The position numbers and the translations under genes are program-made. 64,000 nt of DNA from a virus. A model generated the notes under the pieces. The model was not told the origin of the DNA. It was given only the letters and a program-made list of their open reading frames with translations, and ran no database searches. Position 1 is the stretch's first letter, and every line of letters begins with the position of its first letter. Below are positions 28,110 through 48,045 of this stretch, piece by piece. The DNA is taken from the IMG/VR virus record IMGVR_UViG_3300009034_002371, positions 18,762 through 82,761 of that record. One strand, 5' to 3'.

Positions 28110-28867
28110 TACATTTTATATGGTTGGGACCTGATGAGTTTAGATATGCAGACTATCTGGCAATCAGAACAGCTCAGAAAGTCTATAAAGAAGTTCCGTA
28201 TCTCTGGGTGGATGATACTGTACCGGAGAACGAGTGGTTAGCAAAGGCGAGAGGTTACAGTGTCCGACAACTTATTCCTGGCGATTGGCAGCGGTTTGTG
28301 GTTATAGGAAAGAAACAAAGTGCAAGTCAGAGCTCTAATTATCTGAGATATTGTCTCTTATATAGATTTGGTGGCCTATATTTAGATACGGATACGCTCT
28401 GCATTAAATCTATCTTTGATTTCGACTTGCAGGGTTTGGTAGTAGGTAGGGATGATGTTGTAAAGCGGTGGCCGTTGTGTACTGCTATTATGTATGTTAA
28501 GAAGTGCCACAATCCAGATGTAAAAGTTCTGCTACGGAGATGCATTGATATACTGGAGGAGTCCGGCGGTGATGTTAAATGGGGAACAACAGGACCGAGA
28601 TTACTAAGTGCTGTACTTCCCACAAGTGATAACCTACATACTCTTCTACCTAAAGAGTGTTTTTACTTCTATGGATACCCCGAGTGGCAGGAACTGTTTG
28701 AGGATAACCCTATAGATGAACGAATGTACGTACTTCACTACTGGGGTAAGTATGCCAGGGATCCCGAGTGTATGGGTTTAGATTGCATAACACCAGAGTA
28801 TATTAGAACATCAAATAGCCTTTATGCTAAAGTAGTGAGAAAAGTACTAGGGGAAGATTATCTATGA
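28106..28867 (+). CDS. GT32-like (DxD sugar-binding) glycosyltransferase
   Basis: ATGA overlap start. IHFIWLG, SNYLRY.LLY.FGGLYLDTD, WGTTGPRLL. Confidence 0.85.
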   Translation: MIHFIWLGPDEFRYADYLAIRTAQKVYKEVPYLWVDDTVPENEWLAKARGYSVRQLIPGDWQRFVVIGKKQSASQSSNYLRYCLLYRFGGLYLDTDTLCIKSIFDFDLQGLVVGRDDVVKRWPLCTAIMYVKKCHNPDVKVLLRRCIDILEESGGDVKWGTTGPRLLSAVLPTSDNLHTLLPKECFYFYGYPEWQELFEDNPIDERMYVLHYWGKYARDPECMGLDCITPEYIRTSNSLYAKVVRKVLGEDYL

Positions 28868-28914
28868 TGTTGGGGAGTGAAATTCCGTAGCCCCCTCGTT
28901 AACACGGTAGTAAT

Positions 28915-29733
28915 ATGTTATCAGTGATAATTCCTATCATGGGAAAGCGCCCGGATCGGGTCCCCCTCTTTGCAGAAACGTTGCGGTGTATACAACAACA
29001 GGACTTTCGGGATTATGAACTAATCGTGGTAGAACAGTATTCGGATGAGCCAATGTGGGAGGAGGATGTAGCTACTTTCTCCCCCAGATATATTGCTATT
29101 CAAGGAAGTCCTCTTTGTGTGCCTTGGTGTAAAAACGTGGGGGCTCGAGAAGCTAGAAGCGATGTTTTAGTTTTCCTTGACGCTGATGTAGTATTCGGTA
29201 CTGATTACTTTCGCGTCATTATGGAGAATTTTACTTCAGCTAGGAAGTACTCCGCTGGATGGGATAGCACCCTATGGTTGCGTCAAACTGGGCTCCAGGA
29301 GTATTTATCTACGCACACTTATACACCTAACTGGAGTCCGGAGCTTCTTCAACAGGAATTATTTATAGGGTTAGATGGTCCCGTAAACTTTGGACTGTCT
29401 ATAGTTTTTGATAGGGAGTTTTTTAGGAGCATCGGGGGGTACAACGAGAATTTTGATATGTGGTCTGCAGATGATAAGGATCTGTTGACTAGAGCTATTG
29501 CCGCGACAGGTGACGACTGTAAGTTACACACCATACCGTATACCGTTCTTCATTTGTGGCATGATATGCGGGAGAAGTCCCCAACGTGGAAAGAAGACAG
29601 GGAATACCGGCTTAGTTGTGTAAGGAAATATCCCCTAGAAGTTTCAAGGCGTCTTGTAGAGGCACAAACCGGCAACCCAGAGCATAGGTCACTTATAGAT
29701 TGGCCCGATATGCGGTGGCAGGGGATTTTATGA
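28915..29733 (+). CDS. GT2 glycosyltransferase
   Basis: LSVIIP, YELIVVE, KNVGAR, FLDAD, IGGYNENF..W..DD.D. Confidence 0.88.
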   Translation: MLSVIIPIMGKRPDRVPLFAETLRCIQQQDFRDYELIVVEQYSDEPMWEEDVATFSPRYIAIQGSPLCVPWCKNVGAREARSDVLVFLDADVVFGTDYFRVIMENFTSARKYSAGWDSTLWLRQTGLQEYLSTHTYTPNWSPELLQQELFIGLDGPVNFGLSIVFDREFFRSIGGYNENFDMWSADDKDLLTRAIAATGDDCKLHTIPYTVLHLWHDMREKSPTWKEDREYRLSCVRKYPLEVSRRLVEAQTGNPEHRSLIDWPDMRWQGIL

Positions 29734-30993
29734 ATGGTATTGCTAATTAACTTACCGGCACCCTTTTTAGTTGAGCAAAGGGTACACCCACCACTGGGCT
29801 TATTATATCTAGGGGCTGTGCTACAAGAGAATAAAGTTGAGGTAGAAGTTGTTGATCTAGCAGGGCAGTCCTGTGAAGATCTGTTGGTGTATAATACCCC
29901 TGAGCTTGTTGGTATATCATCCGTTACTCCTCAGTTTGACGATGCCAAGGTTGTTCTGGATCGATTAAGGGAGCAGTGTCCAGATGTACCAGTTGTAATT
30001 GGAGGGCCCCATGCTACCGTCGATCCTAAGTCCTGTGGGGTCTTTGACTATATTGCAGTGGGCGAGGGAGAACAAGTTATTGCAGATTATAAAAAGTGGG
30101 GTGAGGCTAAGGTAATTCAATATACATCTGCAGGCGATCTAGATAGTATTCCTTTCCCGGCTAGGGATCTAGTGGATCTCGGATCTTATAGTTACGATAT
30201 CGGCGGCGAACCAGCTACAACTCTCGTGACTAGTCGCGGGTGCCCTTACCGTTGTGCATTTTGTTGTCGCACTTGTGGCCCTAGGATGAGGATGCGGTCT
30301 CCCGAGAATATTATTGAAGAGGTGCGTTTACTTAAGAGAAAGTATGGGTACAGGGCGTTTGCGATCTTTGATGATGTGTTTGTGCTAAATAGGAAGAGGA
30401 TTAGTAGGATAACGAGTTTATTGAAAAAGGAAAATGTGATATATAGGTGTTTTGTCAGGAGTGATGTTGTTGACTTGTCATTGCTCAGGATGCTTAAGGA
30501 GTCCGGGTGCTATGAGGTAGGGTTTGGGGCAGAGAGTGGCTCCCAGAAAATATTAGATGTTGTAGATAAGAGGACTAGCGTACAGCAAAATACACGGCTA
30601 GTTGAGATGTGTAAGCAGGTGAGTTTGAAAGTTAAGGCGTTTATGATTGTGGGCCTGCCGGGAGAAACTCACGAGACCATGCAGGAGACATATAACTGGT
30701 TAAGAGATGTTGCTCCCGATACCTGGGATGTATCCATTTATACTCCATATAAAGGTAGTCGAATAGTTAGTAGTCCGTTTTTATATGACATAAAGATAAA
30801 TAATATTGCTTTTAAGGATGCTTGGCACAAAGGAGTCCCAGGTGCGTATAAATGTGCCGTCTCCACTAGTGGCCTCAGCTCTGATGATATTGTACAGTGG
30901 CGGGATAAGATAGAAGCTGAGCTCGGAGGAAACCGGTACAAGCATCCCGTCTCTGATGTGCTCCACAGCCTGAGCACAGGTCCAATCTCATGA
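29734..30993 (+). CDS. B12-binding domain radical SAM enzyme (class B methyltransferase-like)
   Basis: PPLGLLYL, VVIGGPHAT, GEGE, TSRGCPYRCAFC (CxxxCxxC), GAESGSQKIL, GLPGET. Confidence 0.92.
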   Translation: MVLLINLPAPFLVEQRVHPPLGLLYLGAVLQENKVEVEVVDLAGQSCEDLLVYNTPELVGISSVTPQFDDAKVVLDRLREQCPDVPVVIGGPHATVDPKSCGVFDYIAVGEGEQVIADYKKWGEAKVIQYTSAGDLDSIPFPARDLVDLGSYSYDIGGEPATTLVTSRGCPYRCAFCCRTCGPRMRMRSPENIIEEVRLLKRKYGYRAFAIFDDVFVLNRKRISRITSLLKKENVIYRCFVRSDVVDLSLLRMLKESGCYEVGFGAESGSQKILDVVDKRTSVQQNTRLVEMCKQVSLKVKAFMIVGLPGETHETMQETYNWLRDVAPDTWDVSIYTPYKGSRIVSSPFLYDIKINNIAFKDAWHKGVPGAYKCAVSTSGLSSDDIVQWRDKIEAELGGNRYKHPVSDVLHSLSTGPIS

Positions 30994-32312
30994 CTCATGA
31001 AGTTTTAACAGCAAAGCGGCTCCCAAGTACCTTAGTGCAGGAGCTCAAGCGGTCGTTTGGTAATGCACCAGTACGTGGTGCTGAAATTGGGGTTCTAGAC
31101 GGTCGGAATGCTCTGTACATGTTGCAGGCGCTAAATATTGAGAAGCTGTATCTTATAGATCCCTACGAGGGTTATAATGGATATTGTGATTTAGATGAAG
31201 ATACCTTACGCGTTGCCAGGACGATGGCAATGCAAAGGCTAAAGCCTTTTGAGGACAGAATTGTATGGCTTTACCTAAGATCAGATGAAGCTGTAGACAA
31301 AATACCAGATATGCTAGATTTTGTCTATATCGATGGTAATCATAGTTATGAATATGTTAAACGAGATATTGAGAATTATCACTGCTTGGTAAAGCCTGGC
31401 GGTTTTGTTGGAGGACATGACTATACTTCAAATATCGACCCGAGATATGTTATTAAGGTAAAGAAAGCCGTTGATGAGTTTGTTACTAAATATGGTTATA
31501 AGTTGTTCGTTCGCCCTTATAGAAAATCAGATGACTGGCCAGATTGGTGGGTGAGGACAGGAACAGTACATTTTATTTGGTTTGGCCCGGCAGCCTTAGG
31601 CTATGCAGATTTTTTAGCAGTTAAAACTGCTGCATTGGTGTATGGTGTAGCCCCCTATGTTTGGTTGGATGCTGTGCCCGAAAATGAGTGGCTATCAAGA
31701 ATAAGGGAGATTTCCATACAGGGGCAAATTAAAGATGAGTGGTTAGATATTGCACATTTAACTACAAATACTGGGCACCGATCAGATTACCTGAGATATC
31801 AACTTCTACATGACTTCGGTGGTTTATATTTAGATTTTGATACCATTTGTGTAAGATCCATTTTTGATCTCAGCCTCAATGGCGTAGTTGTAGGACGCCA
31901 GGGGATACAAATAGACCCTCTAAATGGTGCTGTTATGTATGTTGCCGAGCCTTGTCATCCAATTGTAAAGACTCTGTTGTGCAAATCTACTGACTTGTTG
32001 AAAAGGTTTGGGAGTGGGCTTCAATGGGAGGCTACAGGGCCCTGGCTGTTGAAGGAAGTGTTATTTGAGAATGAACATTCCCACACTATTTTACCTCAGG
32101 AGGTTTTCTACTTTTACAGTCCCTGTAATTGGCAGCAGTTGTTTAGGGATAATCCTGTAAGTGATCAAATGTATGTTATGCACTGGTGGCGCGCTGCTGC
32201 TAAGGGAAAAGTAGGTAAGATTGCGGCAAGGAAGATTACACCAGAGTATGTTAGAACGTCGAGTGAGTTTTATGCCAGGGTAGTTAGGGAGGTACTAGGG
32301 GATGACGTGTAG
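30990..32312 (+). CDS. Methyltransf_24 - GT32 fusion protein
   Basis: N-half is paralogous to ORF 27564 (IDGNHSYE, GGHDY). C-half is paralogous to ORF 28106 (VHFIWFG, GGLYLDFD). Confidence 0.88.
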   Translation: MTHEVLTAKRLPSTLVQELKRSFGNAPVRGAEIGVLDGRNALYMLQALNIEKLYLIDPYEGYNGYCDLDEDTLRVARTMAMQRLKPFEDRIVWLYLRSDEAVDKIPDMLDFVYIDGNHSYEYVKRDIENYHCLVKPGGFVGGHDYTSNIDPRYVIKVKKAVDEFVTKYGYKLFVRPYRKSDDWPDWWVRTGTVHFIWFGPAALGYADFLAVKTAALVYGVAPYVWLDAVPENEWLSRIREISIQGQIKDEWLDIAHLTTNTGHRSDYLRYQLLHDFGGLYLDFDTICVRSIFDLSLNGVVVGRQGIQIDPLNGAVMYVAEPCHPIVKTLLCKSTDLLKRFGSGLQWEATGPWLLKEVLFENEHSHTILPQEVFYFYSPCNWQQLFRDNPVSDQMYVMHWWRAAAKGKVGKIAARKITPEYVRTSSEFYARVVREVLGDDV

Positions 32313-34431
32313 GTTAATACACTTTGTATGGTTTGGACCTAGACCTTTAGGTTATACTGAGTTTCTGGCTGTTAAAACAGCCCGTAAGATATATGGGGTT
32401 GAACCATACCTCTGGACAGACAATTCTGTCCCGGAAAACGAGTGGTTGTTAAGAATAAAAGAGATCGCCGTACAAAAACAGATTAAAAGTGAGTGGCAGC
32501 AGATCGCTAACCTTGCCAGCAAGTATAATTACAAATCAGACTATCTAAGATATCAACTCCTACACGATTACGGGGGTTTGTACCTAGATATAGATACCCT
32601 CTGTGTGAAACCTATCTTCGGCCTCGTTCTGCAGGGTTTGGTCGCCGCGCAGCAGCAGTCTTCCAAAGAGCCCATCAATGGCGCTGTTATGTATGTTGCC
32701 GAGCCTCAGCATCCAGTTGTGGCTGCCCTCTTAAACGAATCTATAAGAATACTCAGAGAGGTCAAGTCTATGACCTGGTCAGAGATTGGCCCTAAATTGC
32801 TTTCCAAAACTTTGAAACCGAATATTGATTGTACTATACTACCTCATGAACATTTCTATTTCTATAAGTCGTCTCACTGGCGGCAGATATTTGAGGATAA
32901 TCCTATAGATGACCAGATGTGTGTTATTCATTGGTGGAACAAACATGCAGGTGCATTTGCCAGGAAAACTGTTAACCCAGAATATATTAGGACTTCTAAC
33001 AGCCTCTATGCCAAGATGGTAAAGAGAGTGTTAGGTTCGGATTATGGTTTGTCCCAGAAGACACCTGCACTGTCGGCTATTGTTTCTATTATGGGTGATC
33101 ACCCTCAGCGAGCCAGAAACTTTGAAGCGACTCTGCGGTGTATACAGCAACAAGACTTCCAAGACTATGAGCTAGTAATTGTAGAGCAGTATATAGAGAA
33201 GCCTCTATGGGAGAGTCGTGCTAAATCTCTAAATGCAACTTACATGACCATCACAGAGAGTACCCTACCTGACTGGGCACGCTTCTGCCTTTCGTGGTGT
33301 AAGAATGTCGGAGCCCGGGTATCTAAGCATGATACTTTATTGATGCTTGATGGTGATGTGGCATTTGGTAATGATTACTTTTCACGTGTGGTTAGTACTT
33401 TCAGGACTGATTGGGGTTACCTTATGGGATTTAGCTTGCTTATCCGGTTGAACACCAAAGGTACTGGCATCTACTTGAGAGATGGGACCTACCATGCGGA
33501 GTGGCCACGTGAGCATGTTGAGAAGACTAACAATCCAGGTTTCTCAGGTAGTGGAGGCGGGGGTGGTTCCGTTGTCTTCGACAAGCGGTTTTTCTTTGAT
33601 GTTATAGGGGGTTATAGTGAGAATTATTTCGGCTGGGGTAAAGAGGATAAAGATTGTCTACTGAGGGCTTATAGATTTGCTGGAGGCAATGAAGAGGGTA
33701 GGTTAAGGCGTATGGACTACACCCTACTGCATTTGTTCCATCGCCACATAGGACTCGCGCATAGGCCGAAGGAAGCGACTACCCACTATTTCAAGTATAC
33801 ACGGCCATATCCACGTCGTGTTACACATCTTCTCGTGGAGGCCCAAGTAGGTAGACCGGAGCATAGAACTCTTATAGATCTGTCGCGTTTGGATTCTCCC
33901 AGTGCTGGTTGTGTTGAACTTCAAAGATCCCCGTTGTCCCAGGAAGAACGTGTGAGTATGTTGGGTAACCACCACCCCGAGTATAGTTTTGAAGATTTCA
34001 CTAATCAAAAGTTGTTCGATGCCACAGATCTAGACGGCTCTGTCATTGTTGGCAGTTGTTTCTATCAGGATCCCGATTCTCAAGATGCAGATCCTCGCGT
34101 GAAAGTTTTTCCTGATGATATGCAGGGGGTTACGTTTATTGAATGCAATTTAGATAATGTGTATGTACCCCCAGGTAATACAGTTGACCTCTTGTGTTCT
34201 TGTAGGAGGATCAAACGTCAGAATGACGGAGAGTCTTGGATACTTAATGAAGATCTAGTGCCTATTGAGCCATTGAGCAAGGAACGCTTAGCCGCGGTTG
34301 GTGGTAATATAGTCCCCAGGAAGATACCGCGACGTGCTATACGTAAAGAGGAATTGCGTCGCTTACGCAGTGAACGAATGAAGAAGTTCCAAGAGTTTTA
34401 CGCGTCTCGAGAGAGGCAGGATGAAGAATGA
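32302..34431 (+). CDS. GT32 - GT2 fusion with an extra C-terminal domain
   Basis: IHFVWFG/GGLYLDID, then YELVIVEQ, KNVGAR, LDGD, GGYSENYFGWGKED. About 157 aa of unrelated sequence follows from Met at 33958. Confidence 0.85.
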   Translation: MTCRLIHFVWFGPRPLGYTEFLAVKTARKIYGVEPYLWTDNSVPENEWLLRIKEIAVQKQIKSEWQQIANLASKYNYKSDYLRYQLLHDYGGLYLDIDTLCVKPIFGLVLQGLVAAQQQSSKEPINGAVMYVAEPQHPVVAALLNESIRILREVKSMTWSEIGPKLLSKTLKPNIDCTILPHEHFYFYKSSHWRQIFEDNPIDDQMCVIHWWNKHAGAFARKTVNPEYIRTSNSLYAKMVKRVLGSDYGLSQKTPALSAIVSIMGDHPQRARNFEATLRCIQQQDFQDYELVIVEQYIEKPLWESRAKSLNATYMTITESTLPDWARFCLSWCKNVGARVSKHDTLLMLDGDVAFGNDYFSRVVSTFRTDWGYLMGFSLLIRLNTKGTGIYLRDGTYHAEWPREHVEKTNNPGFSGSGGGGGSVVFDKRFFFDVIGGYSENYFGWGKEDKDCLLRAYRFAGGNEEGRLRRMDYTLLHLFHRHIGLAHRPKEATTHYFKYTRPYPRRVTHLLVEAQVGRPEHRTLIDLSRLDSPSAGCVELQRSPLSQEERVSMLGNHHPEYSFEDFTNQKLFDATDLDGSVIVGSCFYQDPDSQDADPRVKVFPDDMQGVTFIECNLDNVYVPPGNTVDLLCSCRRIKRQNDGESWILNEDLVPIEPLSKERLAAVGGNIVPRKIPRRAIRKEELRRLRSERMKKFQEFYASRERQDEE

Positions 34432-36368
34432 GAACTATACCAGTAAAGGAATATGTTGAAGATAGGATAGAAGATAACGGATCGTATAGTCGGACTTTTC
34501 TGTCCTATCCTAAATACCATAGGCATGAAGATGGTACCCTCCATGAGACTGATTGCACTATTATAGAGAGTCAGGATCCTGATTGGGATTGGGAAGTTAC
34601 CGAGGGTGTCTGGACTCTTTATGTTAAAAGAGATGGTACCTTCCAGTCGCGGTTCCATGAACATACTGTTACAAGGAAGCCGGTTGGTATTGGATTTTAT
34701 AATATCAGAACCAAGACTTCCATAAACAGAGTTGAGTTTGATTTAACTACATGGGACGTTGAGGTTGGGCATGATACCATAACATGGACAAATCCTGAGA
34801 ACGGTATTATCTTTAAGGTATGGTATATACATGATCAGGCTCGAGGTATCGTGGAACTTCCACAAGAAGTACAAACAGAGTTATTAGCTAAGAGGCGCAA
34901 GAGCTGGTCCCGTGAAAATACTTATGTTAGCGTTATTTACGATGCTGATATGAATTTTCAGGATGAGGATATGGAGTCCGAAGATCGGATCAGACATAAG
35001 CATCCTGATTGGGAGATCCAGATCGGAGGGCACCACATCGTCCATGAAAAATTCGGTCGGAAACCGAATCCACATCCCCCAGAGGTTGAGCGGGAAGATG
35101 CAGATGAGTCACTAGATTATACATGGCCCAAACGTAAGATATACTTTGCCGAACAGAAGAAGTTCATCGAAGCCTGTAGAATAGATGCTCTGGAAAGCGA
35201 AGATGGGAAAATCATTTTCAATACTACCGATACCTTTGGTTTTGCTTTCTGCGAAGATGCCTATATCCGTGGCTATCCTAATTACAATAATACCAACTAT
35301 AATGGTGTCGGTCTTATTGTAGATGGGCACACCAGTTCCGCGTGTGAGTATTTTTCGTTTATCAGATTCAACTTGAGTAGTCAGCTTGGTATCCCAGGTA
35401 CTATATCTCTTGTTCGCTTGTACTTATACTGCTATAATACTTCCTACGGTGGGATCGATTACATGTATGCCAGCCCGACACTCAAGCCGTGGACAGAAAC
35501 GGGAGTTACCTGGCGTAGATGGAATGGCTCTGCGTATTGGAATGACCCGGGAGCTTGGTACGGGTTTTATGACTGGGAGGGATGTGAATACGATTTCAAT
35601 ACCCTGAATGGGGCTGGTTGTGATATTAGTAAGTATTACGCCTCTAGGCCGGTTAATGAAGGTCACGAGGATTCCTATATAGCTATTGGTGATCTTGGGT
35701 TCCATAATATGTTTGACCATCTCCAGGCCCAGTGGGAGGCCGATAAGTGGTATGGTTGGAAAATCCACAACCCGTCTGACGAGCTTGGGAGAGCATATTT
35801 TAGAGATTCTGAGTATGCGACTGTTGGTCAGAGGCCCTATTTAGAAGTTACTTGGGTATCTAGTAGTTCAAGTAGCTCTGCCTCGTATAGCTGTAGTTCC
35901 TCAAGTTCCAGCTCGTCCCACTCCAGTTCTTCCTCGTTTAGTTCTAGTTCTTCCAGCTTCAGTAGTTCAAGCTCATCGTGTTCTAGTTCCTATCCAGGTC
36001 CATACTACGTTAGGGCGGACGCACTCGGTGGAGGTGTGGGAGATGCCGATACTCAGGCTCGAGCTCTTACTCCGGAAGAATTTAGAACTCATAATGCAGG
36101 GTCCCCGGTAACCTATTACGTTAAAGGAAAATTTGGAACATGTTTAGGTGACTACGCATTTAGTGGTAACTTAAACTACTCGGCAAGGGATGGTAATTTT
36201 GCTAATGCTATGCTTATCAAGGGATACCTGAACAACGGGCCACTTGACGTAGTCCACGGAAGGTATCGTCCAAGATTTATTCTTGGGGATGTCTCTCTGA
36301 GTTCGTCAAGCTCGTGTAGTTCAAGTTCTGGTTCTTCAAGTGTTAGTTCTTCAAGTAGCTCTACTTGA
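34428..36368 (+). CDS. Modular virion protein: N-domain + DNRLRE-like domain + Ser linker + N-terminal fragment of beta-helix module + Ser tail
   Basis: EDAYI...FIRFNLS...LYLY...PWTETGVTW...DSEY....RPYLEVTW is DNRLRE-like. YYVRADALGGG...TYYVKG...IKGY...RPRFILG matches the N-terminus of ORF 39838. Confidence 0.65.
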   Translation: MRTIPVKEYVEDRIEDNGSYSRTFLSYPKYHRHEDGTLHETDCTIIESQDPDWDWEVTEGVWTLYVKRDGTFQSRFHEHTVTRKPVGIGFYNIRTKTSINRVEFDLTTWDVEVGHDTITWTNPENGIIFKVWYIHDQARGIVELPQEVQTELLAKRRKSWSRENTYVSVIYDADMNFQDEDMESEDRIRHKHPDWEIQIGGHHIVHEKFGRKPNPHPPEVEREDADESLDYTWPKRKIYFAEQKKFIEACRIDALESEDGKIIFNTTDTFGFAFCEDAYIRGYPNYNNTNYNGVGLIVDGHTSSACEYFSFIRFNLSSQLGIPGTISLVRLYLYCYNTSYGGIDYMYASPTLKPWTETGVTWRRWNGSAYWNDPGAWYGFYDWEGCEYDFNTLNGAGCDISKYYASRPVNEGHEDSYIAIGDLGFHNMFDHLQAQWEADKWYGWKIHNPSDELGRAYFRDSEYATVGQRPYLEVTWVSSSSSSSASYSCSSSSSSSSHSSSSSFSSSSSSFSSSSSSCSSSYPGPYYVRADALGGGVGDADTQARALTPEEFRTHNAGSPVTYYVKGKFGTCLGDYAFSGNLNYSARDGNFANAMLIKGYLNNGPLDVVHGRYRPRFILGDVSLSSSSSCSSSSGSSSVSSSSSST

Positions 36369-36385
36369 TGGTACATATTTACGCC

Positions 36386-36413
36386 TTGACTGTACTTAGG
36401 GTGAATTTGTAAT
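36386..36413 (+). promoter_or_regulatory. sigma70-like promoter TTGACT-N16-TGTAAT
   Basis: Lies in the 58-nt gap before ORF 36427. The same -10 hexamer occurs at 49553, 1499 and 17972. Confidence 0.5.
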
Positions 36414-36426
36414 TGGGGGTTGTTGT

Positions 36427-39400
36427 ATGAAACCTCAACCAACGGGTTTATATACCGAAGACGCGATAGAATCGGGTGGTATGCACCATACCACCTTCCT
36501 ATCCTATCCCAAATATCATCGACATGAAGATGGTACTCTCCATGAGACTGATTGTGTTATCAGGGACAGTCAGGACCCTGATTGGGATTGGGAAGTTATC
36601 GAGGGTGTCTGGACTCTTTATGTTAAAAGAGATGGTACTTATCAGTCCCGATTTCATGATTATACTATCACGAGAAAGCCAGTTGGTGTTGGGTTCTGTA
36701 ACACACATTCCAAGAAGTGTGTCGTTAAGATAGACTTTGATCTGAACTCCTGGGTAGTCAAGATCGATGGGGATACTGCAACATGGACAAATCCCGATAA
36801 CGGTATTGTTTTCAAAGTCCAGTATATACATGATCAGGCTCGAGGTATCGTAGAACTTCCACAAGCAGTACAAACACAACTGTTAGAGGATTGTGGATCC
36901 TGGCCAGTTGAAGATACCTCCGTTTGTGTTATTTATGATGCCGATATAGACTTCCTTAGTGAAGATGTAGATACTGTAGATAGTATAATAGATGGGAACT
37001 CGAAGTGGGTAGTTAAAGTTGGAGGACTTTATGTAGTTCACGAGAAGCATGGACTGGTAAGTAAAGAACACCGCGATAATCTCGCTTGGCAAAAGCATAC
37101 GATATACCTTCCTGAACAAAAGAGATATATTGAAGCATGTGCTCTAGATGCTTTAAAAAGTGAAGATGGCGTACTTATCTTTAACGATACTGATACGTTT
37201 AAGGAAGGTGTGGATGGCTACTCAGGCTGCGAGGATACTTATATAGAGTTAAGTAGTGAAACCACCCACGGTAGTTCTACCCAGATATACTGCGACGGGG
37301 ACTCTTGGGATACAAAGAAAGTCTTGATTAAGTTTGACCTAAGTGGTGAGATTCCACTAGTTCCTCATCAAACAATAACTTCTGCTTCCCTGGGTCTATA
37401 CGTTCTTAACCACTTTGATGGCCCAGCTGACTCCCTTCGGATTATGTGTGCAGGTGTCCTTAAACCATGGACAGAAGATGAGGCTACCTGGACGCGCTGG
37501 CATAAAACAAATGACAAGTGGTGGCACAGTAGCGGCTGTGATGCTAAGAATGACTATGCCTACTTCAATAGTTTTAGTGGTTATGGGTATGATAGATTTA
37601 GTAGTTGGACCCAAGCGTTTATTAACGAAAGTGATGAGGATGACTACACTTCATGGGTTGTTAGACCATGGCAAATACAAAAGCAGTATGATGCTCAGCT
37701 CTGGTATGGTTGGGTACTCGACCCTGGCGTTCCAGAGCATGTAGAAATTACTTTTGCTAGTTCGGAGCATGCTGATCCAACAAAGCGGCCGTATCTGACA
37801 GTTACCTGGGAACCAACTAGTTCCTCAAGCTCCAGTTCGAGCTTCAGTAGTAGTTGTTCCAGTTCGAGCTTCAGTAGTAGTAGTTCTTCATGGGGCCCCT
37901 ACAGTTGTCAGTTTGGAGATTATACAGTACTACAACACCTTCATTTTGAAACTGAAAACCCTGATGGGATCCAAATTGGTAAATATAGTATTGTCCATAA
38001 CTGTTATGCTAACCAGGCCTCCCCCACTGCAGACTATCCAGCGTGGAAAGCAACTGGAAGCGGATTTAATGTAACTTCGTTCATCAGCTGTGAAGGGGCT
38101 AGTGTTGGTGGGTACGCCTTCTATACAGATCTTGAGGATATAACCTTCACAGGGTGCCTTGCTCGTGATAGTAATGTTGGTTTTTATGTTGGAAACCAGG
38201 CTATCAGATTAGTCCATAATCTGATTTATAACTGTGCACGTGGTATACATATAGCAAGTAGAGATACCTTTATACATGGCAATACTATTTACAACTGTAG
38301 TACCTGTGGAATATATCTTGGTACTACTTGGGCCAGTGTGTACATTCTAGGCAATATTTTAGATTCCTGTGACTATGGTATATTGGCATCTTTTCGACAA
38401 CCGGCATGCTATCTTGATTGGAACAATTTCAGTAATAGCCTCACTCTAGATATAGCCCAGTCTGGTGGCCAAGACGTTGTGAATAAGGGGCCGAATACTA
38501 CCTCCCTTGATCCTGGTTTCTTTGATATAGGAAGTTTAGATTTCCGTGTTGGTCAACATATGAGGGGACTTGGTGTTAAGTCTAATTTTGGTAGTAATAA
38601 TATTATAGCAGCTAGTTGTATCGGCTATCCGGATCAGGGAGCCATACAGCGGAGAGAGGTAATTGGTGAGGATGCAGCGGTATGGGAGACAGGACCTGAT
38701 GCACATACCGGAATTGGTTATGTGAAGCTGAGTCCTACTCACGCTAGTAGATATCCCCTGAAGTGGGAATTCTTAGCTCCTGTCAAAGCTGATCGTGCTC
38801 TTCAGTTTAGCTTTTGGCGTAAGGGGAGTTTTAGTGGTACATTTCAATTTCTTGCAACAGGTGTTGGTATAAGCATATCTGAGGTTGTTGCTGTACCGGG
38901 TTCGTATCAACAACATATATCCCCTGTGGTGACTCCAACTTCGGATCAGTTTGCCAAGATAACGTTACAAGCGCAAGGAACAGGTACTATCTATGTCGAT
39001 GACTTTGGAACTTCGCAAAGTTGTTCCTCAAGCTCATCGTTCTCAAGTAGTTGTTCCTCAAGCTCATGTAGTAGTTCCTGTTCGTCAAGTTCATGTAGTT
39101 CATCGTTCTCAAGTAGTTGTTCCTCAAGCTCATCAAGTTCATGTAGTTCATCGTTCTCAAGTAGTTGTTCCTCAAGTTCATGTTCGAGTAGCTTCTCAAG
39201 TAGTTGCTCTTCGAGCTCCAGCTTTAGTTCATCATGCTCAAGTAGCTTCTCAAGTTCATGTAGCAGCTCCTCGTTCTCAAGCAGCTGCTCATCGAGTTCA
39301 TCATGTTCAAGTAGCTTCTCATCGAGTTCATCATGTTCAAGTAGCTTCTCAAGTAGCTGTTCATCGAGCTTCTGTTCATCAAGTTCATGTTCAAGTAGCT

Positions 39401-39828
39401 TCTCGAGCTCCTGTTCATCGAGCTTCAGCTCATCGAGTAGCTGTTCAAGTAGCTTCAGTAGCTGCAGTTCAAGCTTCAGCTCATCAAGTTCATGTTCAAG
39501 TAGCTTCTCGAGTTCATGCTCTTCGAGCTTCAGCTCATCGAGTTCATGTTCAAGTAGCTTTAGTAGCTGCAGTTCATCGTTCTCAAGTAGCTGCTCATCG
39601 AGCTTCAGCTCATCGAGTTCGTGCTCAAGTAGTTTTAGTAGCTCATCGAGTAGCAGTTTCAGTTCATCGAGTTCATGTTCAAGTAGTTTCTCAAGTTCAT
39701 GTTCAAGTAGCTTCTCAAGTTGTTCATCGAGCTCCAGCTTTAGTTCATCATGTTCAAGTAGCTTCTCAAGTTGTTCATCGAGCTCCAGCCTTAGTTCATC
39801 ATGTTCAAGTAGTTCGAGCATACAGTAG
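36427..39828 (+). CDS. Modular virion protein: N-domain + DNRLRE-like + Ser linker + C-terminal part of beta-helix module + beta-sandwich + ~270-aa Ser/Cys/Phe tail
   Basis: N-terminal ~460 aa are paralogous to ORF 34428. Beta-helix repeats, DQGAIQRRE and a C-domain ending IYVDD are paralogous to ORF 39838. Confidence 0.7.
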   Translation: MKPQPTGLYTEDAIESGGMHHTTFLSYPKYHRHEDGTLHETDCVIRDSQDPDWDWEVIEGVWTLYVKRDGTYQSRFHDYTITRKPVGVGFCNTHSKKCVVKIDFDLNSWVVKIDGDTATWTNPDNGIVFKVQYIHDQARGIVELPQAVQTQLLEDCGSWPVEDTSVCVIYDADIDFLSEDVDTVDSIIDGNSKWVVKVGGLYVVHEKHGLVSKEHRDNLAWQKHTIYLPEQKRYIEACALDALKSEDGVLIFNDTDTFKEGVDGYSGCEDTYIELSSETTHGSSTQIYCDGDSWDTKKVLIKFDLSGEIPLVPHQTITSASLGLYVLNHFDGPADSLRIMCAGVLKPWTEDEATWTRWHKTNDKWWHSSGCDAKNDYAYFNSFSGYGYDRFSSWTQAFINESDEDDYTSWVVRPWQIQKQYDAQLWYGWVLDPGVPEHVEITFASSEHADPTKRPYLTVTWEPTSSSSSSSSFSSSCSSSSFSSSSSSWGPYSCQFGDYTVLQHLHFETENPDGIQIGKYSIVHNCYANQASPTADYPAWKATGSGFNVTSFISCEGASVGGYAFYTDLEDITFTGCLARDSNVGFYVGNQAIRLVHNLIYNCARGIHIASRDTFIHGNTIYNCSTCGIYLGTTWASVYILGNILDSCDYGILASFRQPACYLDWNNFSNSLTLDIAQSGGQDVVNKGPNTTSLDPGFFDIGSLDFRVGQHMRGLGVKSNFGSNNIIAASCIGYPDQGAIQRREVIGEDAAVWETGPDAHTGIGYVKLSPTHASRYPLKWEFLAPVKADRALQFSFWRKGSFSGTFQFLATGVGISISEVVAVPGSYQQHISPVVTPTSDQFAKITLQAQGTGTIYVDDFGTSQSCSSSSSFSSSCSSSSCSSSCSSSSCSSSFSSSCSSSSSSSCSSSFSSSCSSSSCSSSFSSSCSSSSSFSSSCSSSFSSSCSSSSFSSSCSSSSSCSSSFSSSSSCSSSFSSSCSSSFCSSSSCSSSFSSSCSSSFSSSSSCSSSFSSCSSSFSSSSSCSSSFSSSCSSSFSSSSSCSSSFSSCSSSFSSSCSSSFSSSSSCSSSFSSSSSSSFSSSSSCSSSFSSSCSSSFSSCSSSSSFSSSCSSSFSSCSSSSSLSSSCSSSSSIQ
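39013..39822 (+). repeat. Low-complexity coding repeat encoding poly-Ser with periodic Cys and Phe
   Basis: Degenerate units such as agttcatgttcaagtagcttc and agcttcagctcatcg, translating to SSSCSSSFSSSS. Confidence 0.95.
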
Positions 39829-39837
39829 AGGTAGAGG

Positions 39838-41250
39838 ATGGCTGCACCCAAGACAAGATATGTTCGCGCTGACGCCGCTGGTGGTGGTAATGGTACCGTA
39901 GATGCTGCAAGCGGGCCAGGCGGTAATTATGCCTGGACGTGGAATGAGTTTATGTCCAATCTCCCACGCTATGGCGATACCTACTATATTAAAGGTCCTT
40001 ACACATATACCCTTACAACGGACCTTGATTTCTATGCCGGACGTTCTAGTGCCCCTATAGTTGTTGAAGGATATTATAATTCCCCCGGAGACAACCCTAC
40101 AGGAAATAATAGACCTAGAATTGCTTGCGGTGTCCATGAGTTGGACCTAGGTGGTTATTTCTATTTTAGGAATTTCCGAATAACAATAAGCGAGTGGCTT
40201 GGATGTTATTCCGAGGGTCCGAATACAATTGTACAAAATTGTAGTAGTTATAATACCGGTCCTGCTATTGACTATCCAGCTGCCTTCTCCGGCGGGGGAG
40301 GCGTTTGGATTGACTGTGATGGGAGAGCAAGAGACGCCGGGTGGTTTTTCGAGGGTAATGTTATCGGTTGCTGTGCTTACAACTGCGATTACGGTTTTAT
40401 CTCATGGGCGCACGATGTTTGCATTATACATAGTATAACAAAAAATTGCGGCTACGGGGTATGGATGTACTCCGGCGGGAGTGCTATATTGAACAATACA
40501 TTCTATAACTGTTCCTCAGGTGGAATCTTTGGCGAGAATCAGGCTGTTGGCCCTATTATAGGTAACGTGTTTGACTCTGGTGATAAAGGTGTAGAGTATG
40601 ATGTTCCGGCAGGTCGGGAGGTGTGGCTTGATTACAATAATTATGAGAACCTCTCCGGGAGTGATACTGTAAACTGTAGCAAGGGGGAGGACTGGACCAG
40701 CGATGATCCCGAGTTCTTCGACTTCGGAACTAGCGACTTTCGGGTAGGTCCAGGTATCAGAGGACAGGGATTCCCGAAGTGGCAAGATTTCTTTGACCAT
40801 ATCCTCAACCCCAATTTGGAGGGTTGGTCTGATCAGGGAGCTTTGCAGCGACGAGAAGAAGTAGGGGAAATGTCTGTCGAGAAGGAGACAGGTCCTAACG
40901 CTCGCGGGGGCACTGGATCATGTGTACGATTCACTCCTTCATCTACTGTACACCCTCAAGTATGGGTTTTCAAGGTTCCCTGCCAGGATAGTATTGCTGT
41001 ACAGTTGGACATGTGGCATAAAATCACGTCCGGCTTTAATGGGTCTTTTACATTTAGTGCTTCTGGTAGTGGTATCACTCCAATAAATGAGGAAGTAGTG
41101 GCGCTTACAGATGATGGTGTTTACCATGAGTTTCTTTCCAGTATAATGACGCCGACCGAGTCCGGTTACATTGCAGTAACACTGAGAGCAAAGCAGGGTG
41201 TAGTTTCCGGTAGCATTTTCGTTGATGACATTACTACTCTAGAAGTATAG
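39838..41250 (+). CDS. Complete beta-helix module protein with C-terminal beta-sandwich (putative carbohydrate-binding virion protein)
   Basis: RYVRADAAGGG, EGYYNSPGDNPTGNNRP, Asn/Cys ladders, DQGALQRRE, terminal IFVDD. Confidence 0.65.
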   Translation: MAAPKTRYVRADAAGGGNGTVDAASGPGGNYAWTWNEFMSNLPRYGDTYYIKGPYTYTLTTDLDFYAGRSSAPIVVEGYYNSPGDNPTGNNRPRIACGVHELDLGGYFYFRNFRITISEWLGCYSEGPNTIVQNCSSYNTGPAIDYPAAFSGGGGVWIDCDGRARDAGWFFEGNVIGCCAYNCDYGFISWAHDVCIIHSITKNCGYGVWMYSGGSAILNNTFYNCSSGGIFGENQAVGPIIGNVFDSGDKGVEYDVPAGREVWLDYNNYENLSGSDTVNCSKGEDWTSDDPEFFDFGTSDFRVGPGIRGQGFPKWQDFFDHILNPNLEGWSDQGALQRREEVGEMSVEKETGPNARGGTGSCVRFTPSSTVHPQVWVFKVPCQDSIAVQLDMWHKITSGFNGSFTFSASGSGITPINEEVVALTDDGVYHEFLSSIMTPTESGYIAVTLRAKQGVVSGSIFVDDITTLEV

Positions 41251-41266
41251 GGGTTGAGGTAGCAGT

Positions 41267-42124
41267 ATGGCAAGCTCAAGTTCTAAAGTACCCCGTGATA
41301 CAGGTACATTTGAGTATCGTTATCGAGATAGCGCTCTGCCACCTGTAATTCATGATGATGAAAAGTATAATCTACCATCACAGGATTTCATCGATGAACT
41401 AAACGACCCTTCATTTTTCCAGGGAGATTTTTATGAGGATGTAAGTCTAAGTTCTAGCTCATCGAGCTCTTGTTCTCCAAGTCCAAGTTCATCAAGCTCA
41501 AGTAGTATAAGTCTTTCGTGTTCTAGCTCTTCAAGTTATAGTTCACAGTCGGTAAGTAGTTCATCTTCAAGTTGTAGTAGTCTTGAAGCCCCAGACGTAA
41601 CTGACGCCAGAGTAGACCCACCACGTTTTCGTTCCGGTGAAATTATATGTGCTAGGTATACCTATCATGGTGCTTTTCCTGAAGCCGGTTCTCAGATCCG
41701 TTGGTATAAGAACGATGTATATCAGCCGGATCATGATAATGAGATATGTTTCGAAGTAACTGGTCAACGGGGAGATGTTTGGTTCTTCTATGTTACACCA
41801 TGTGATGCGTTTGTATGTGGGAACCCTGTGGAGTCTCTCCCTGGGATTATGATAAATAACCCTCCGTCTGCACCCTCCCGTATAGAGATTGTTCCTCATA
41901 ATCCACAGGTGGATGATGACTTATTTGCAATTGTAGAGGGATCTGTCGATCTCGATGGTGACAGGATTATATATCATATAACATGGTACAGACTCAGGGA
42001 CGGGGTTACTGAGGAGTTAGTAGCGTATCGTAATAAGACTACGGTACCGTATACTGAGGTACAGGAGGGAGATGTATTCTCCATTGAGGCTAGGGCATTT
42101 GACGGAAGTGATGAGTCCGGGTAG
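41267..42124 (+). CDS. Ser-linker protein with two Ig-like domains (second truncated at C-terminus)
   Basis: YTY....EAGSQIRWYKN...GDVW...VTP.D and NPPSAP...DLDGD.I.Y..TWYR...GDVF.IEARAFDG. Homologous to the Ig domain in ORF 45836. Confidence 0.65.
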   Translation: MASSSSKVPRDTGTFEYRYRDSALPPVIHDDEKYNLPSQDFIDELNDPSFFQGDFYEDVSLSSSSSSSCSPSPSSSSSSSISLSCSSSSSYSSQSVSSSSSSCSSLEAPDVTDARVDPPRFRSGEIICARYTYHGAFPEAGSQIRWYKNDVYQPDHDNEICFEVTGQRGDVWFFYVTPCDAFVCGNPVESLPGIMINNPPSAPSRIEIVPHNPQVDDDLFAIVEGSVDLDGDRIIYHITWYRLRDGVTEELVAYRNKTTVPYTEVQEGDVFSIEARAFDGSDESG

Positions 42125-42187
42125 TGAATTCATAGCCCCATGCCTTTCCGTTGGTTATAGGGGATTAGGGGGTTTAGCCGTATATTA

Positions 42188-42301
42188 GTAGGCGAGGCTC
42201 TCTACTAGACTTTGGCATAGTGGTGGGCTACACGAAGGTGCTCCTCTCCGTGCCCATACTATGACAGAGCTCCTCTCGACTAGTTGGGGAGCCTCTCCTA
42301 T
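42188..42301 (+). ncRNA. Long irregular stem-loop (candidate structured RNA or leader)
   Basis: Nested arms TAGG/CCTA, GAGGCTCTC/GGGAGCCTC, ACTAG/CTAGT, CTTTG/CAGAG, CATAGT/ACTATG, GTGGGC/GCCCAT in non-coding DNA. Confidence 0.55.
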
Positions 42302-42320
42302 ACCTCGCGGGGTGATAAAG

Positions 42321-43259
42321 ATGCCTGTATGGGTTACAGATAACTTTTTTAGGACTATGAGATACTTTAATCGGTTCATAGGTCTACAGGCTCATGAGCC
42401 TGTGTACCTACTGTTTAGGAAGTGGTCTGGTCCCGTAATCTCTGGCACAGCGTCTGGCTTTCGTCTTAACCCTGTTTACCAAAGATATGAATTTACCCTG
42501 TATACACCACCTACGCCTATAGTAGGCACCGGGAAGCCCTTCTTGCTATCTTTAAAGTTATTCCTAGATGGCGCCGAAATGAATCCTGTATATCAGTACG
42601 ACCTAACAACATCAAATCTTGACTTTTGGATGGAGATAGATAAGGGAGGGCCCAAAGATCCAGATAGCTATGGTGGTTATATTGTAGGCTTTCATGATGG
42701 TTTTGACCCTGCTGGACATATAATAGAGTACCGCTACGAAGAAGTTTGTCACTGCGTAGATGTTGGAGAGGAGAGTTTTCATCCTGACTCTAGATGTTCG
42801 ACCTGTTACGGTACAGGATTTGTGGGTGGCTATGATCAATATACGTCATTCCAAGAAAGAGAAGCTGGGCGGATTGTTAAGCCAGCTAATACTATCCTTT
42901 GTAGGTTCCCTATTACTTCTGAAATACTAAAGATAAGCAGATACGGTGGTGAAATAGTTACTCAGAGAAAGAGCTGGGCCATCGTTAGCCCACTTTTGCA
43001 TGACTGGGATATACTTATAAGAATGAGAGCTTACGGTGCTCCTATGCAGCTAAATCCTACTACACTCACGGTGCCAGATGAACGATACTGGATCATAGAG
43101 TGGGAACACTCATCTGCAAGGCCTTCATACGACCTGCCCCTGAGGGCGCAGCCCGGGATGCATGCTGTGCGAAAGGGAGTTACTCTTCACCAAAAATTTA
43201 ACACAGCGGAGATACAGCCACAACATATAGCGTATCAGATTCCGTTCCTGAGAGGGTAA
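42321..43259 (+). CDS. Putative neck/head-closure protein
   Basis: GGGGTGA SD precedes ATG 42321. CHC...PDSRCSTCYGTGFVGGY Cys motif resembles those of large-myovirus neck proteins. Position is upstream of the sheath. Confidence 0.55.
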   Translation: MPVWVTDNFFRTMRYFNRFIGLQAHEPVYLLFRKWSGPVISGTASGFRLNPVYQRYEFTLYTPPTPIVGTGKPFLLSLKLFLDGAEMNPVYQYDLTTSNLDFWMEIDKGGPKDPDSYGGYIVGFHDGFDPAGHIIEYRYEEVCHCVDVGEESFHPDSRCSTCYGTGFVGGYDQYTSFQEREAGRIVKPANTILCRFPITSEILKISRYGGEIVTQRKSWAIVSPLLHDWDILIRMRAYGAPMQLNPTTLTVPDERYWIIEWEHSSARPSYDLPLRAQPGMHAVRKGVTLHQKFNTAEIQPQHIAYQIPFLRG

Positions 43260-44588: not shown

Positions 44589-45836
44589 ATGGCACTTAAC
44601 GCAGCGATTGTGTGGGAGGTAAGAACCTCCGGCAATAATAATAATGGTGGAGGCTTCAAAGCGGGGGCATCTGGGACTGATCGCTCGCAACAGGACGCTG
44701 CCCATTTATCTTTTACCGATCTAGAAGTTAAGGGCGCGGTCTATACCAGAGTATACTCTGTCACAGAGAATGCAAACTTAGTTGCTACTTGTATTGGAAA
44801 CTTAATCCATATAACTGGCGACGGTGGCTCCGGGCTTTTTACAGTCGGGTTTTATGAGGTCACTGGGCAAGGTAACGATGGTAATAACTATCTCGATATA
44901 GATAGGAACTGCGCTACTGGTAATGCTAGTGACGGAATTGCCGCCCTCGGGGGCGCTGTTGCGGACTTATTGGAGATAGATAGTGTTGTAGTCGCGGGTA
45001 ATACCATGTATGTTAAAGCTGGAACGTACGCTCACGCTAGTGCGTTAAGTGTAAACAATGGTACTGCTAGTCTATATATTAAAACAATAGGCTATAATAC
45101 TGCTAGGGGTGACGCCCCCACAGGTGATAACAGGCCACTGATACAGGACGGCGGTAACGAACAGAAATGGGGAACGTATAACGAGATTGAGAATTTCAGA
45201 CGTACAGGTTCTCACACCTACGGTATCTATACTTTGAACTACTGCGTTATTCGCAATTGCAAGAGTACGGTAGCAGCTAACACACGCTGCTTCAGGTATG
45301 GTGCTGGAAGTGTTGTGATCGATTGTGAAGCTATTGGACCTGGTACCCTAGGGATAGGTTTTGAATCGTCCGGAGGTGGTTCATTTACAATAGCTTGTTA
45401 TGCCGAGGGTTTGAACCGAGGCTATGAACATGTAATAGGTAATGAGGTAGTCGCCTTCTGCACTTTCGATACTTGTACATATGGGTGGTACGGTAATAAC
45501 GTTAATGGTCGCCCAGGTTGTAAAATTCTCAATAATAATTTTTATAACAGCTCGAATACTGGTGTGTATGGTAATTATGGAGGGCAGACAGCGTATTCCT
45601 GGCTCGTTCTGAATAACCAATTTGTGGACTGCGGTGTTGGCATGCAAATAACTATTTCTTCGCCAGGGGTATATCTTGATTTTAATAACTTCTTTAATAA
45701 TACCACAGATGTAACTAACGTTATCAAGGGTGCAAATACAACAGCGAACAATCCCGGATATACAAATGCCCCTGCTGGCGATTTCAGTGGTGTTGACAGT
45801 GCAGACGGCTTTGGTATTAGACTTGGAGTTGGATAA
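44589..45836 (+). CDS. Beta-helix virion protein (paralog of ORF 25669), lacking the terminal DQGAxQ motif
   Basis: MALNAAIVWEVRTSGNNNNGGG, GYNTARGDAPTGDNRP, beta-helix repeats. Ends GFGIRLGVG with a TAATG overlap into the next gene. Confidence 0.68.
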   Translation: MALNAAIVWEVRTSGNNNNGGGFKAGASGTDRSQQDAAHLSFTDLEVKGAVYTRVYSVTENANLVATCIGNLIHITGDGGSGLFTVGFYEVTGQGNDGNNYLDIDRNCATGNASDGIAALGGAVADLLEIDSVVVAGNTMYVKAGTYAHASALSVNNGTASLYIKTIGYNTARGDAPTGDNRPLIQDGGNEQKWGTYNEIENFRRTGSHTYGIYTLNYCVIRNCKSTVAANTRCFRYGAGSVVIDCEAIGPGTLGIGFESSGGGSFTIACYAEGLNRGYEHVIGNEVVAFCTFDTCTYGWYGNNVNGRPGCKILNNNFYNSSNTGVYGNYGGQTAYSWLVLNNQFVDCGVGMQITISSPGVYLDFNNFFNNTTDVTNVIKGANTTANNPGYTNAPAGDFSGVDSADGFGIRLGVG

Positions 45837-47935: not shown

Positions 47936-48045
47936 AGTATCCGGAGAGGAGTTAGGTTTTTATCATTAGGTGATAGGAGGAGAGGAGCGGCCGAGGAAGT
48001 TCTAGTTCCCCGGTGTATCATTACTTATTTAAGGAGGTTGTCAGA

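Follow-up and report, generated by a model that had tools for sequence, protein, structure and literature searches.

In this work, we analyse two adjacent phage genes, P0001 and P0002, that encode between them the complementary parts of one beta-helix domain, each part being attached to a serine-rich tether of its own. The genes lie in IMG/VR virus record IMGVR_UViG_3300009034_002371, an 82.8-kb single-contig assembly, of which positions 18,762 to 82,761 were taken; this whole stretch of 64,000 nucleotides (nt) is called the window below, and all positions are counted from its first letter. Three genes follow one another on the plus strand at the locus: P0001 at 34428-36368 (646 amino acids, aa), P0002 at 36427-39828 (1133 aa) and P0003 at 39838-41250. 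The first two were delimited from the list of open reading frames (ORFs) and their translations. The third, characterised by BLASTP and by an AlphaFold2 (AF2) model, encodes an intact beta-helix followed by a beta-sandwich and is the nearest intact relative of both halves.

P0001 consists of a domain that we call A1, a serine (Ser) linker, the helix fragment B1 and a short Ser tail. The A1 domain (residues 1-477, 34428-35858, plus strand) contains a beta-rich N-terminal part and a CBM96-like module, as judged by Pfam, AF2 and Foldseek. Residues 274-363 match the CBM96 family (PF24517) with 37.1 bits at a cut-off of 26, and at E <= 0.01 Pfam gives only CBM96 for P0001 and only Pect-lyase_RHGA_epim for P0002. 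In the AF2 model of A1, which has a mean predicted local distance difference test (pLDDT) score of 69.8, this part matches the fold of 8wab, a chondroitin-sulfate-binding carbohydrate-binding module (CBM), with Foldseek probability 1.00 and template modelling score TMt 0.59-0.60, some stretches of this part of the model being at pLDDT <50. Given a profile score above the cut-off and a matching predicted fold, A1 is assigned a CBM96 carbohydrate-binding module, with sugar binding as its predicted function. The first 200 residues of A1 form a confident beta-rich domain with no convincing Foldseek match in the PDB, and comparison of the A1 model with phage tail complexes gave Foldseek probabilities of at most 0.38.

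The A1 domain is followed by Ser-rich linker 1 (residues 478-521, 35859-35990), which is evident from the translation and a tract scan, and then by B1 (residues 522-620, 35991-36287). From its match to P0003, its alignment and the co-fold described below, B1 is predicted to comprise the N-terminal cap and first rungs of a beta-helix; its C-terminus is the heptapeptide RPRFILG, encoded at 36267-36287. The gene closes, at 36288-36368, with codons for the conserved tetrapeptide DVSL and for a Ser tail about 22 residues long, up to the stop codon; the relatives P0007 and P0008 likewise have [DE]VSL followed by a Ser tail. The intergenic spacer between P0001 and P0002 is 58 nt long (36369-36426), and the downstream gene is in a different frame. 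The promoter/terminator scan found one weak terminator-like hairpin in this spacer, at 36382-36403.

P0002, also on the plus strand, begins with A2 (residues 1-463, 36427-37815), a paralog of A1: over the N-terminal ~470 aa the two share 221/487 identities (45%, E 2e-125). It continues with Ser-rich linker 2 (residues 464-488, 37816-37890, from the translation). Directly after this tract, at 37891-37893, comes the codon for W489 (in WGPYSCQFGDY), with which the helix remainder B2 begins. According to the translation, BLASTP and MAFFT, the rungs of B2 occupy residues 489-744 (37891-38658), from WGPYSCQFGDYTVLQHLHF at the N-terminus to a QGAIQ strand at the C-terminus. They are followed by a CBM-like C-terminal beta-sandwich (residues 745-862, 38659-39012), which is homologous to P0003 residues 345-467, and by a periodic Ser/Cys/Phe tail of about 270 residues ending at the stop codon (39013-39828, translation and tract scan). 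P0002 scores 20.8 bits on PF12708, below the cut-off of 27. Taken together, P0001 and P0002 look like modular carbohydrate-active proteins built from a CBM, a Ser linker, a beta-helix, a CBM and a Ser tail.

The two parts of the helix were each compared with P0003 by BLASTP. B1 (100 aa, 35991-36290) gives 35/103 identities (E 2e-9), with query residues 2-99 corresponding to subject residues 4-98, and B2 (376 aa, 37885-39012) gives 132/362 identities (E 8e-56), with query residues 32-376 corresponding to subject residues 127-467. When the second match is extended without gaps, W489 and G490 of P0002 fall at residues 98 and 99 of P0003. In MAFFT alignments with 24 intact homologs, including three paralogs from the window, B1 ends at the G of the motif RPxxxxG (alignment A6) and B2 begins immediately after it (alignment A4). 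Note that the placement of B1 is taken from the alignment A6; the alignment A5, in which the full P0001 stood first, was discarded because B1 was misplaced in it. In A6, the identity of B1 is 37% to P0003 and 16-29% to the other intact homologs. In pairwise comparison, B2 is 36% identical to P0003 versus 27% to the paralog P0005. Since both halves are closest to the adjacent P0003, their similarity fits an origin from a tandem paralog.

The initial annotation of the window, made from its letters and ORF list, had placed RPRFILG at 36267-36287 and the W at 37891, and had claimed that the two parts, when joined, align with the intact paralogs without a gap. The translations give exactly these coordinates and strings, and the BLASTP match to P0003 and the MAFFT alignment agree on the gapless joint, so the split and the exact complementarity of its two sides can be read directly from the genes. 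A further claim, that neither half is obviously decayed, also holds: the ORFs of P0001 and P0002 are both open, and the breakpoint recurs on both sides in relatives of less than 50% identity, as described below.

The position of the cut within the fold can be seen in the AF2 model of P0003, which was obtained from a 72-row alignment and has a pLDDT of 87.3 and a predicted template modelling score (pTM) of 0.78. In this model, a right-handed beta-helix starts at about residue 6 and continues as short regular strands to about residue 270, and residues 345-469 form a beta-sandwich. The point equivalent to the split lies in a loop between strands 94-98 and 108-111, modelled with pLDDT 92-94. According to the model, therefore, the cut falls within the helix, past its N-terminal cap and initial rungs, and away from any domain border.

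Foldseek comparison of the P0003 helix with the PDB gives, with probability 1.00, tailspike depolymerases, the pectate lyase Pel9A (1ru4, TMt 0.44) and PL6 alginate lyases; the top tailspikes are TSP4 of CBA120 (5w6h, E 2e-7) and S2-4 of K64-1 (9k4a), and the K2-2 TSP is also found. The sandwich matches CBM16, CBM4 and CBM61 modules with TMt 0.54-0.61. Sequence identity to the solved enzymes is 8-14% in these matches, and the profile scores of P0003 stay under their cut-offs, at 23.9 (cut-off 25.9) for PF13229 and 20.7 (cut-off 23.6) for PF05048; with 32.3 bits, the paralog P0004 exceeds the same PF05048 cut-off of 23.6. From the model and the Foldseek matches, the predicted fold of P0003 can be classified as a right-handed parallel beta-helix of the pectate-lyase-like type, to which both B1 and B2 align; catalytic activity is putative.

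Conservation of the split was examined in relatives of P0001 and P0002. The search for P0001 homologs returned eight proteins at E <= 0.001 among 5115 candidates. The order of parts in P0001 (A domain, Ser, B1, Ser) is repeated in two of them, P0007 (631 aa, 49% identity) and P0008 (628 aa, 46% identity), whose C-termini read RPRLVMG-[SP]-[ED]VSL, a Ser tail and ST(P), with the stop codon kept after the Ser tail. On the other side of the break, P0010 (905 aa), with 47% identity to P0002 across 885 columns, starts with SSSSSSWGAYPVKFGRYTILQHLQF after its Ser tract. The breakpoint proposed by the initial annotation therefore recurs at the end of P0007 and P0008 and at the start of the corresponding part of P0010; judging from these comparisons, the break is fixed on either side in relatives that differ at half of their residues. 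An identical breakpoint on both sides in relatives of less than 50% identity is not what chance would give. P0010 and another public relative, P0013, also have an N-terminal M-[RH]-I-P-x-P motif and a Ser tract before the A domain, neither of which is present in P0002.

B1 is the best-kept part of P0001. It shares 68 of 97 residues (70%) with P0007 and 61 of 97 (63%) with P0008, without insertions or deletions, compared with identities of only 47% and 45%, respectively, for the A domain. Between P0002 and P0010, B2 is 50% and the C-terminal domain 56% identical. These values point to strong constraint on B1, and neutral drift of the N-fragment, which the initial annotation had named as an outcome that would tell against its proposal, is not what is found. 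The idea that the fragments are the relic of an insertion is contradicted by the conservation of both B1 and the breakpoint.

The intact state was surveyed with P0003 as the query. This exhaustive search of representatives gave 486 matches at E <= 0.001; the best 150, including P0003 itself, were listed, and the other 149 were re-scored. Among these best 150 of 486, 98 of the 149 relatives cross residues 85-115 of P0003 in one chain, 47 have only the C-terminal sandwich, attached to other N-terminal modules, and the remaining four are P0010, P0014, P0019 and P0105. Among the matches listed, only P0010 starts at the breakpoint, its match opening at query residue 94 once its Ser tract has ended. 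The N-termini of P0019 and P0105 are divergent; an intact junction is visible in P0105. Since 98 of the 149 listed relatives run through the breakpoint, an intact chain is the rule among them, and the split is specific to the lineage of P0001 and P0002. As a separate observation, P0014, which is 53% identical to P0003, is only 281 aa long on a 26.5-kb contig (JGI), its first residue falling at about helix residue 199; a further split, a frameshift or a wrongly called start may account for this.

Proteins in which the A domain, the Ser linker and an unsplit B1-B2 helix form one chain were not found in the homolog searches with P0001 or P0002, which depend on shared words. Residues 489-862 of P0002 found P0010 alone when compared with 1983 candidate proteins (623-1983 aa), and B1 by itself found P0007 alone among 333 longer candidates. 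Scans of viral contigs with P0002, P0003 and the alignments A2 and A8, and of genome contigs with A2 and A8, gave no relative. A scan of metagenome contigs with A2 gave five loci, and ORFs were read in four of them (L001-L004). None of the four reaches the B1/B2 region: in L001-L003 the contig ends within an A-domain gene, of which only the first part is present, and L004 encodes a distant, differently built protein.

In L001-L003, the gene before the A-domain gene encodes a conserved protein of 160-185 aa with the pattern KYSFxDFTxQ...CNLDNV...PQNDG (L001:1827-2315, L002:612-1169, L003:225-713), unlike the window, where a glycosyltransferase gene stands directly before P0001. L001 also contains, at 1-1006, the end of a different beta-helix-type protein with a periodic Ser/Cys/Phe/Trp tail of about 170 aa, the A-domain gene lying two genes beyond it; this tail indicates that the Ser-tail style is common across the phage group.

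Because Ser-coding low-complexity DNA is prone to break assemblies, and several public homologs are themselves cut in Ser tracts (for example P0009, and the end of P0010), a misassembly at such repeats or a decaying relic broken by an insertion has to be considered. The exact P0001 protein occurs on three public contigs, the longest of 96,905 nt. In addition, two other studies supplied four runs, the contigs of which we compared with positions 34428-38990 at a likeness of at least 85%; run X3 belongs to one study, of a marine sediment metagenome, and runs X1 and X2 to the other, where they come from the same sample. In a 654-nt contig of X3, 35970-36313 and 36427-36531 are present, and 186 different letters stand between them instead of 36314-36426; a 525-nt contig of X3 extends from A2 over the Ser linker into the start of B2 (37555-37977). 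The spacer is bridged unchanged by an X1 contig (36298-36567) and an X2 contig (36293-36500). Both junctions are thus bridged by contigs of other studies, and the split is not an assembly quirk; neither is the breakpoint unique to this assembly, an outcome that the initial annotation had likewise named as telling against its proposal. With the same junctions in other assemblies and in open-frame relatives of 46-49% identity, and with B1 kept better than the rest of P0001, both artefact and decay are extremely improbable. Five of the eight nucleotide differences listed for B1 in related contigs are synonymous, in a partial sample of 40 of 423 differences.

The same contigs bear on whether one intact chain is made from the halves by rejoining of DNA, RNA or protein, a possibility raised in the initial annotation for DNA and RNA. 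The idea is suggested by the exact complementarity only, and we found no positive evidence for it. The 1.6 kb between the two parts encodes a complete, conserved A2 domain, which has a start codon of its own and is in a different frame, the orthologs keep the stop after the Ser tail, no Rfam family is found in 34000-42500 at E <= 0.1, and Pfam finds no intein or Hint domain at E <= 0.01. A joint from 36287 to 37897 is absent from the contigs of the four runs, which drop rare forms and therefore cannot prove its absence. Rejoining is, on balance, very unlikely. A split intein with protein trans-splicing was likewise considered as a known system and rejected; the break is flanked by Ser tracts only, and no intein domain appears in Pfam.

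We then modelled the two fragments together. In this controlled co-fold, B2 was represented by P0002 residues 487-862 with the alignment A4 and B1 by a 107-aa fragment with the alignment A6. All three runs gave an interface score (ipSAE) of 0.83, and none of three controls scored above 0.00. For calibration, 58 of 80 solved complexes reach this mark, as do 2 of 110 mismatched pairs. Between runs, at least 91% of the 123-127 contacts agree, and the pLDDT of the partner is 79 or higher. The modelled interface lies between B2 residues 489-511 and 516-531 and residues 60-106 of the B1 fragment, which include DVSL; the tightest B2/B1 pairs are F507/F99, H506/R98, T500-V501/M77-L78 and Q503/K80. In the model, the first rung of B2 is stacked against two strands of B1, MLIKG and RPRFI, just as successive rungs would be in an unbroken helix. 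B1 itself reaches a pLDDT of 80-88 with B2 and of 45 with an unrelated protein instead. The co-fold supports binding of B1 to B2; it does not show it.

From the conserved breakpoint, the constrained B1 and the co-fold (0.83 versus 0.00), the best-supported reading, and in our judgement a probable one, is that the two gene products join by rebuilding one beta-helix, that is, by fold complementation. This is what the initial annotation had proposed; its description of the split stands, and its inference that the proteins clip together is now backed by conservation and a model. The further step, to a coupler used in a branched appendage of the virion, is speculation.

Several observations weigh against this reading. 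The argument for binding in trans comes from a model, and halves of one fold tend to pass such a comparison by likeness; the high score may reflect the likeness of the fragments to intact beta-helices, homologs of which were present in the alignments of both chains, and the calibration counts hold only roughly for user-supplied alignments. P0007, P0008 and P0010 were compared as separate proteins, whose genes may or may not be neighbours or lie in one genome. The tree of A domains, built from eight rows cut at the first Ser run and leaving out P0013 and the metagenome loci, places P0001, P0002, the pair P0007 and P0008, and the pair P0009 and P0010 in an unresolved fork; it fails to separate the carriers of B1 from those of B2, and the duplication cannot therefore be dated relative to the split. 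This lack of resolution is perhaps due to gene conversion. Finally, 1999 nt are skipped in an X1 contig, where 34727 runs on into 36727, and 2045 nt in an X2 contig of the same sample, where 34705 runs on into 36751. If real, the 34727-36727 joint would mean a single hybrid gene consisting of an A domain, Ser and B2, without B1.

An assembly chimera or a gene-converted, mosaic paralog is at least as likely an explanation of that joint, because A1 and A2 share an exact run of 39 nt about 90 nt upstream. The run is part of a block (34548-34667 and 36547-36666) in which the two genes are 85-87% identical in nucleotide sequence; elsewhere, most 60-column windows of the A1/A2 DNA are 47-70% identical, and one further window reaches 85%. 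The shared block and the joined contigs hint at gene conversion, recombination between the paralogs or assembly chimeras. A second joint in X1, from 35976 to 36316, was set aside as unreliable (low depth, a side of 23, and a position inside Ser-coding repeats).

The serious rival to fold complementation is that P0001 and P0002 are independent proteins that arose by duplication and reciprocal domain loss; B1 would then be autonomous, with, for example, another partner or a glycan as its ligand, B2 would be an uncapped helix, and the complementarity would merely record their history. Such an origin is consistent with A1 and A2 being tandem paralogs, with the frequency of domain splits and fusions in this genome (genes 27564, 28088 and 28915 being split, and 30990 and 32302 fused, for example), and with the 34727-36727 joint, which, if real, means B2 without B1. 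Against it, B1 is never apart from B2 in the 98 of 98 covering relatives among the matches listed, it is integral to the helix in the P0003 model, and it is poorly modelled when B2 is missing (pLDDT 45). Moreover, this history needs a piece integral to a helix to be stable and of use by itself, and two independent losses at the same residue, fixed on both sides in relatives of less than 50% identity. We consider it unlikely.

In another reading, B1 is a transient template: a folding nucleus or cap that acts in trans on B2 and then leaves, or a gate on the activity of B2. Beta-solenoid rungs can template the rungs that follow them, as in autotransporters, two-partner secretion and HET-s, and the complementarity and the interface would be the same as in lasting fold complementation. 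The 123-127 contacts of the co-fold, and the backbone hydrogen-bonded stacking that the model implies, would be unlikely to release easily, and we regard transient action as improbable.

Under the preferred reading, fold complementation, the arrangement would work as follows. The two adjacent, co-oriented genes would give paralogous proteins, each with a beta-rich domain, a CBM96-like module and a flexible Ser tether. P0001 would supply the cap and first rungs (~100 aa) of a right-handed beta-helix of the polysaccharide-lyase or tailspike type, and P0002 the remaining rungs, the QGAIQ strand and the C-terminal CBM-like sandwich. After translation, the B1 strands MLIKG and RPRFI would stack in parallel on the exposed B2 rung TVLQHLHF, which would restore one continuous capped beta-helix and tie P0001 to P0002 non-covalently. 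The predicted product is a heterodimer in which a single beta-helix carries two CBM96 arms on tethers, together with a long Ser/Cys/Phe tail. As to its origin, we speculate that a P0003-like tandem paralog was probably rearranged at or near the Ser-coding repeats.

A second pair of genes, 5 kb downstream, looks like another split of the same fold. P0005 (44589-45836) ends with GFGIRLGVG, just before the xQGAxQ strand of its homologs, and the protein that follows it (45836-47935) starts with MAQATIYQGAWQQSTYQGAWQ, that is, with two copies of YQGAWQ, and continues with a Ser tract of about 130 aa; this protein also matches the LVIVD repeat. As in P0001/P0002, a fragment of the same fold family, in the same genome, is placed on a Ser tether in the neighbouring gene; unlike in P0001/P0002, it is one C-terminal strand that has been moved and doubled, rather than the N-terminal rungs. 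Docking of this strand is putative. With a second split present, it becomes more likely that this phage uses the docking of fragments generally, as a means of assembly. We tentatively extend the idea to the whole lineage, which may use beta-helix pieces (N-terminal rungs and the C-terminal QGAxQ strand) as plug-in connectors on Ser tethers, probably glycosylated, so that a multi-armed complex for binding and cutting sugars assembles itself, with heterodimerisation by rung stacking; this broader picture is a possibility that we hold with some doubt.

In principle, the proposed link resembles donor-strand complementation. In chaperone-usher pili, an immunoglobulin-like (Ig-like) fold lacks one (the last) strand, which is donated by a short N-terminal extension of the next subunit. 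In both cases, an incomplete fold would be completed by a piece of another protein, and the completed fold is the link. Here, however, a beta-helix is cut after about two to three rungs, the donor is a multi-rung piece of 100 aa, and both parts are held on Ser tethers from large paralogous domains. Since the fold is a beta-helix and not Ig-like, P0001/P0002 were not counted among donor-strand complementation systems.

Two other systems offer a partial comparison. The amyloid signalling of HET-s/NWD2 works by heterotypic templating of a beta-solenoid, in which short motifs form open-ended polymers. P0001/P0002 would share with it the stacking of rungs from different polypeptides in one beta-solenoid, but would form a closed, capped, enzyme-type helix of fixed length from two halves. 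The branched tailspikes of CBA120 and K64-1 are joined through dedicated N-terminal adaptor domains, and their helices are whole and trimeric. The window resembles them in encoding several beta-helix folds of the depolymerase type side by side, but in P0001/P0002 the helix itself is divided, and a place in the virion is putative for these proteins.

The overall build of the two proteins is also that of polyserine-linked carbohydrases of marine bacteria, which are single chains consisting of a CBM, a polyserine linker and a catalytic-type module. P0001 and P0002 share this order of CBM, polyserine linker and catalytic-type module. To our knowledge, no split catalytic domain has been reported for the enzymes of Teredinibacter or Saccharophagus. 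Full-text searches of the literature (main texts) gave no description of a split beta-helix, and none of the papers on polyserine linkers concerns phage proteins by its title or the start of its abstract. The term polyserine itself is used in papers on Teredinibacter and Saccharophagus, for example in PMC2699552. In the literature searched, then, coupling of proteins by rung stacking is not described for enzyme-type beta-helices, and the arrangement can be regarded as a variant of known fold or strand complementation whose fold and setting are without precedent there.

If the halves bind, P0001/P0002 would be a natural split of an enzyme-type beta-helix that is maintained by selection, and would indicate that a few rungs can dock in trans on an uncapped helix and serve as a specific connector. 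This would inform how phages assemble their host-recognition and depolymerase machinery from separately encoded modules and, for protein engineering, would provide a ready-made orthogonal pair of split domains. For annotation, seemingly truncated beta-helix ORFs beside Ser tracts should not be dismissed as pseudogenes.

Concerning the genomic surroundings, the source is a divergent, uncultured phage that carries a tail-sheath homolog at 48013-49512 (PHROG tail sheath, E 1e-12) and is therefore contractile-tailed; the sheaths of Bacillus phage G and others are weak tblastn matches to this gene. Nearly all genes of the window are on the plus strand, and the skew between G and C is positive throughout. 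A blastn comparison of 34400-41300 with a phage collection gave no nucleotide match, and PHROGs holds no family for P0001, P0002 or P0003. The promoter scan found 10 promoter-like sites, fewer than the mean of 16.3 in shuffled sequences. P0001, P0002 and P0003 sit between a glycosyltransferase block and the tail genes, represented by the sheath gene at 48013; the block directly upstream of P0001 comprises glycosyltransferase, methyltransferase and B12-radical-SAM genes.

Within 27564-34431, methyltransferase and glycosyltransferase modules are divided or joined among neighbouring genes. For example, the methyltransferase gene 27564 and the GT32-like gene 28088, whose ORFs overlap by 22 nt, jointly match 30990, and 28088 and the GT2-like gene 28915 jointly match the first 526 aa of 32302. 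In addition, a peptide is common to 24770-24820 and 41267-41340, in each case beside Ser tracts: it forms the C-terminus of P0164 (SSGSTFDLRLRDITYDV) and the N-terminus of P0163 (MASSSSKVPRDTGTFEYRYRDS), and may be another docking tag.

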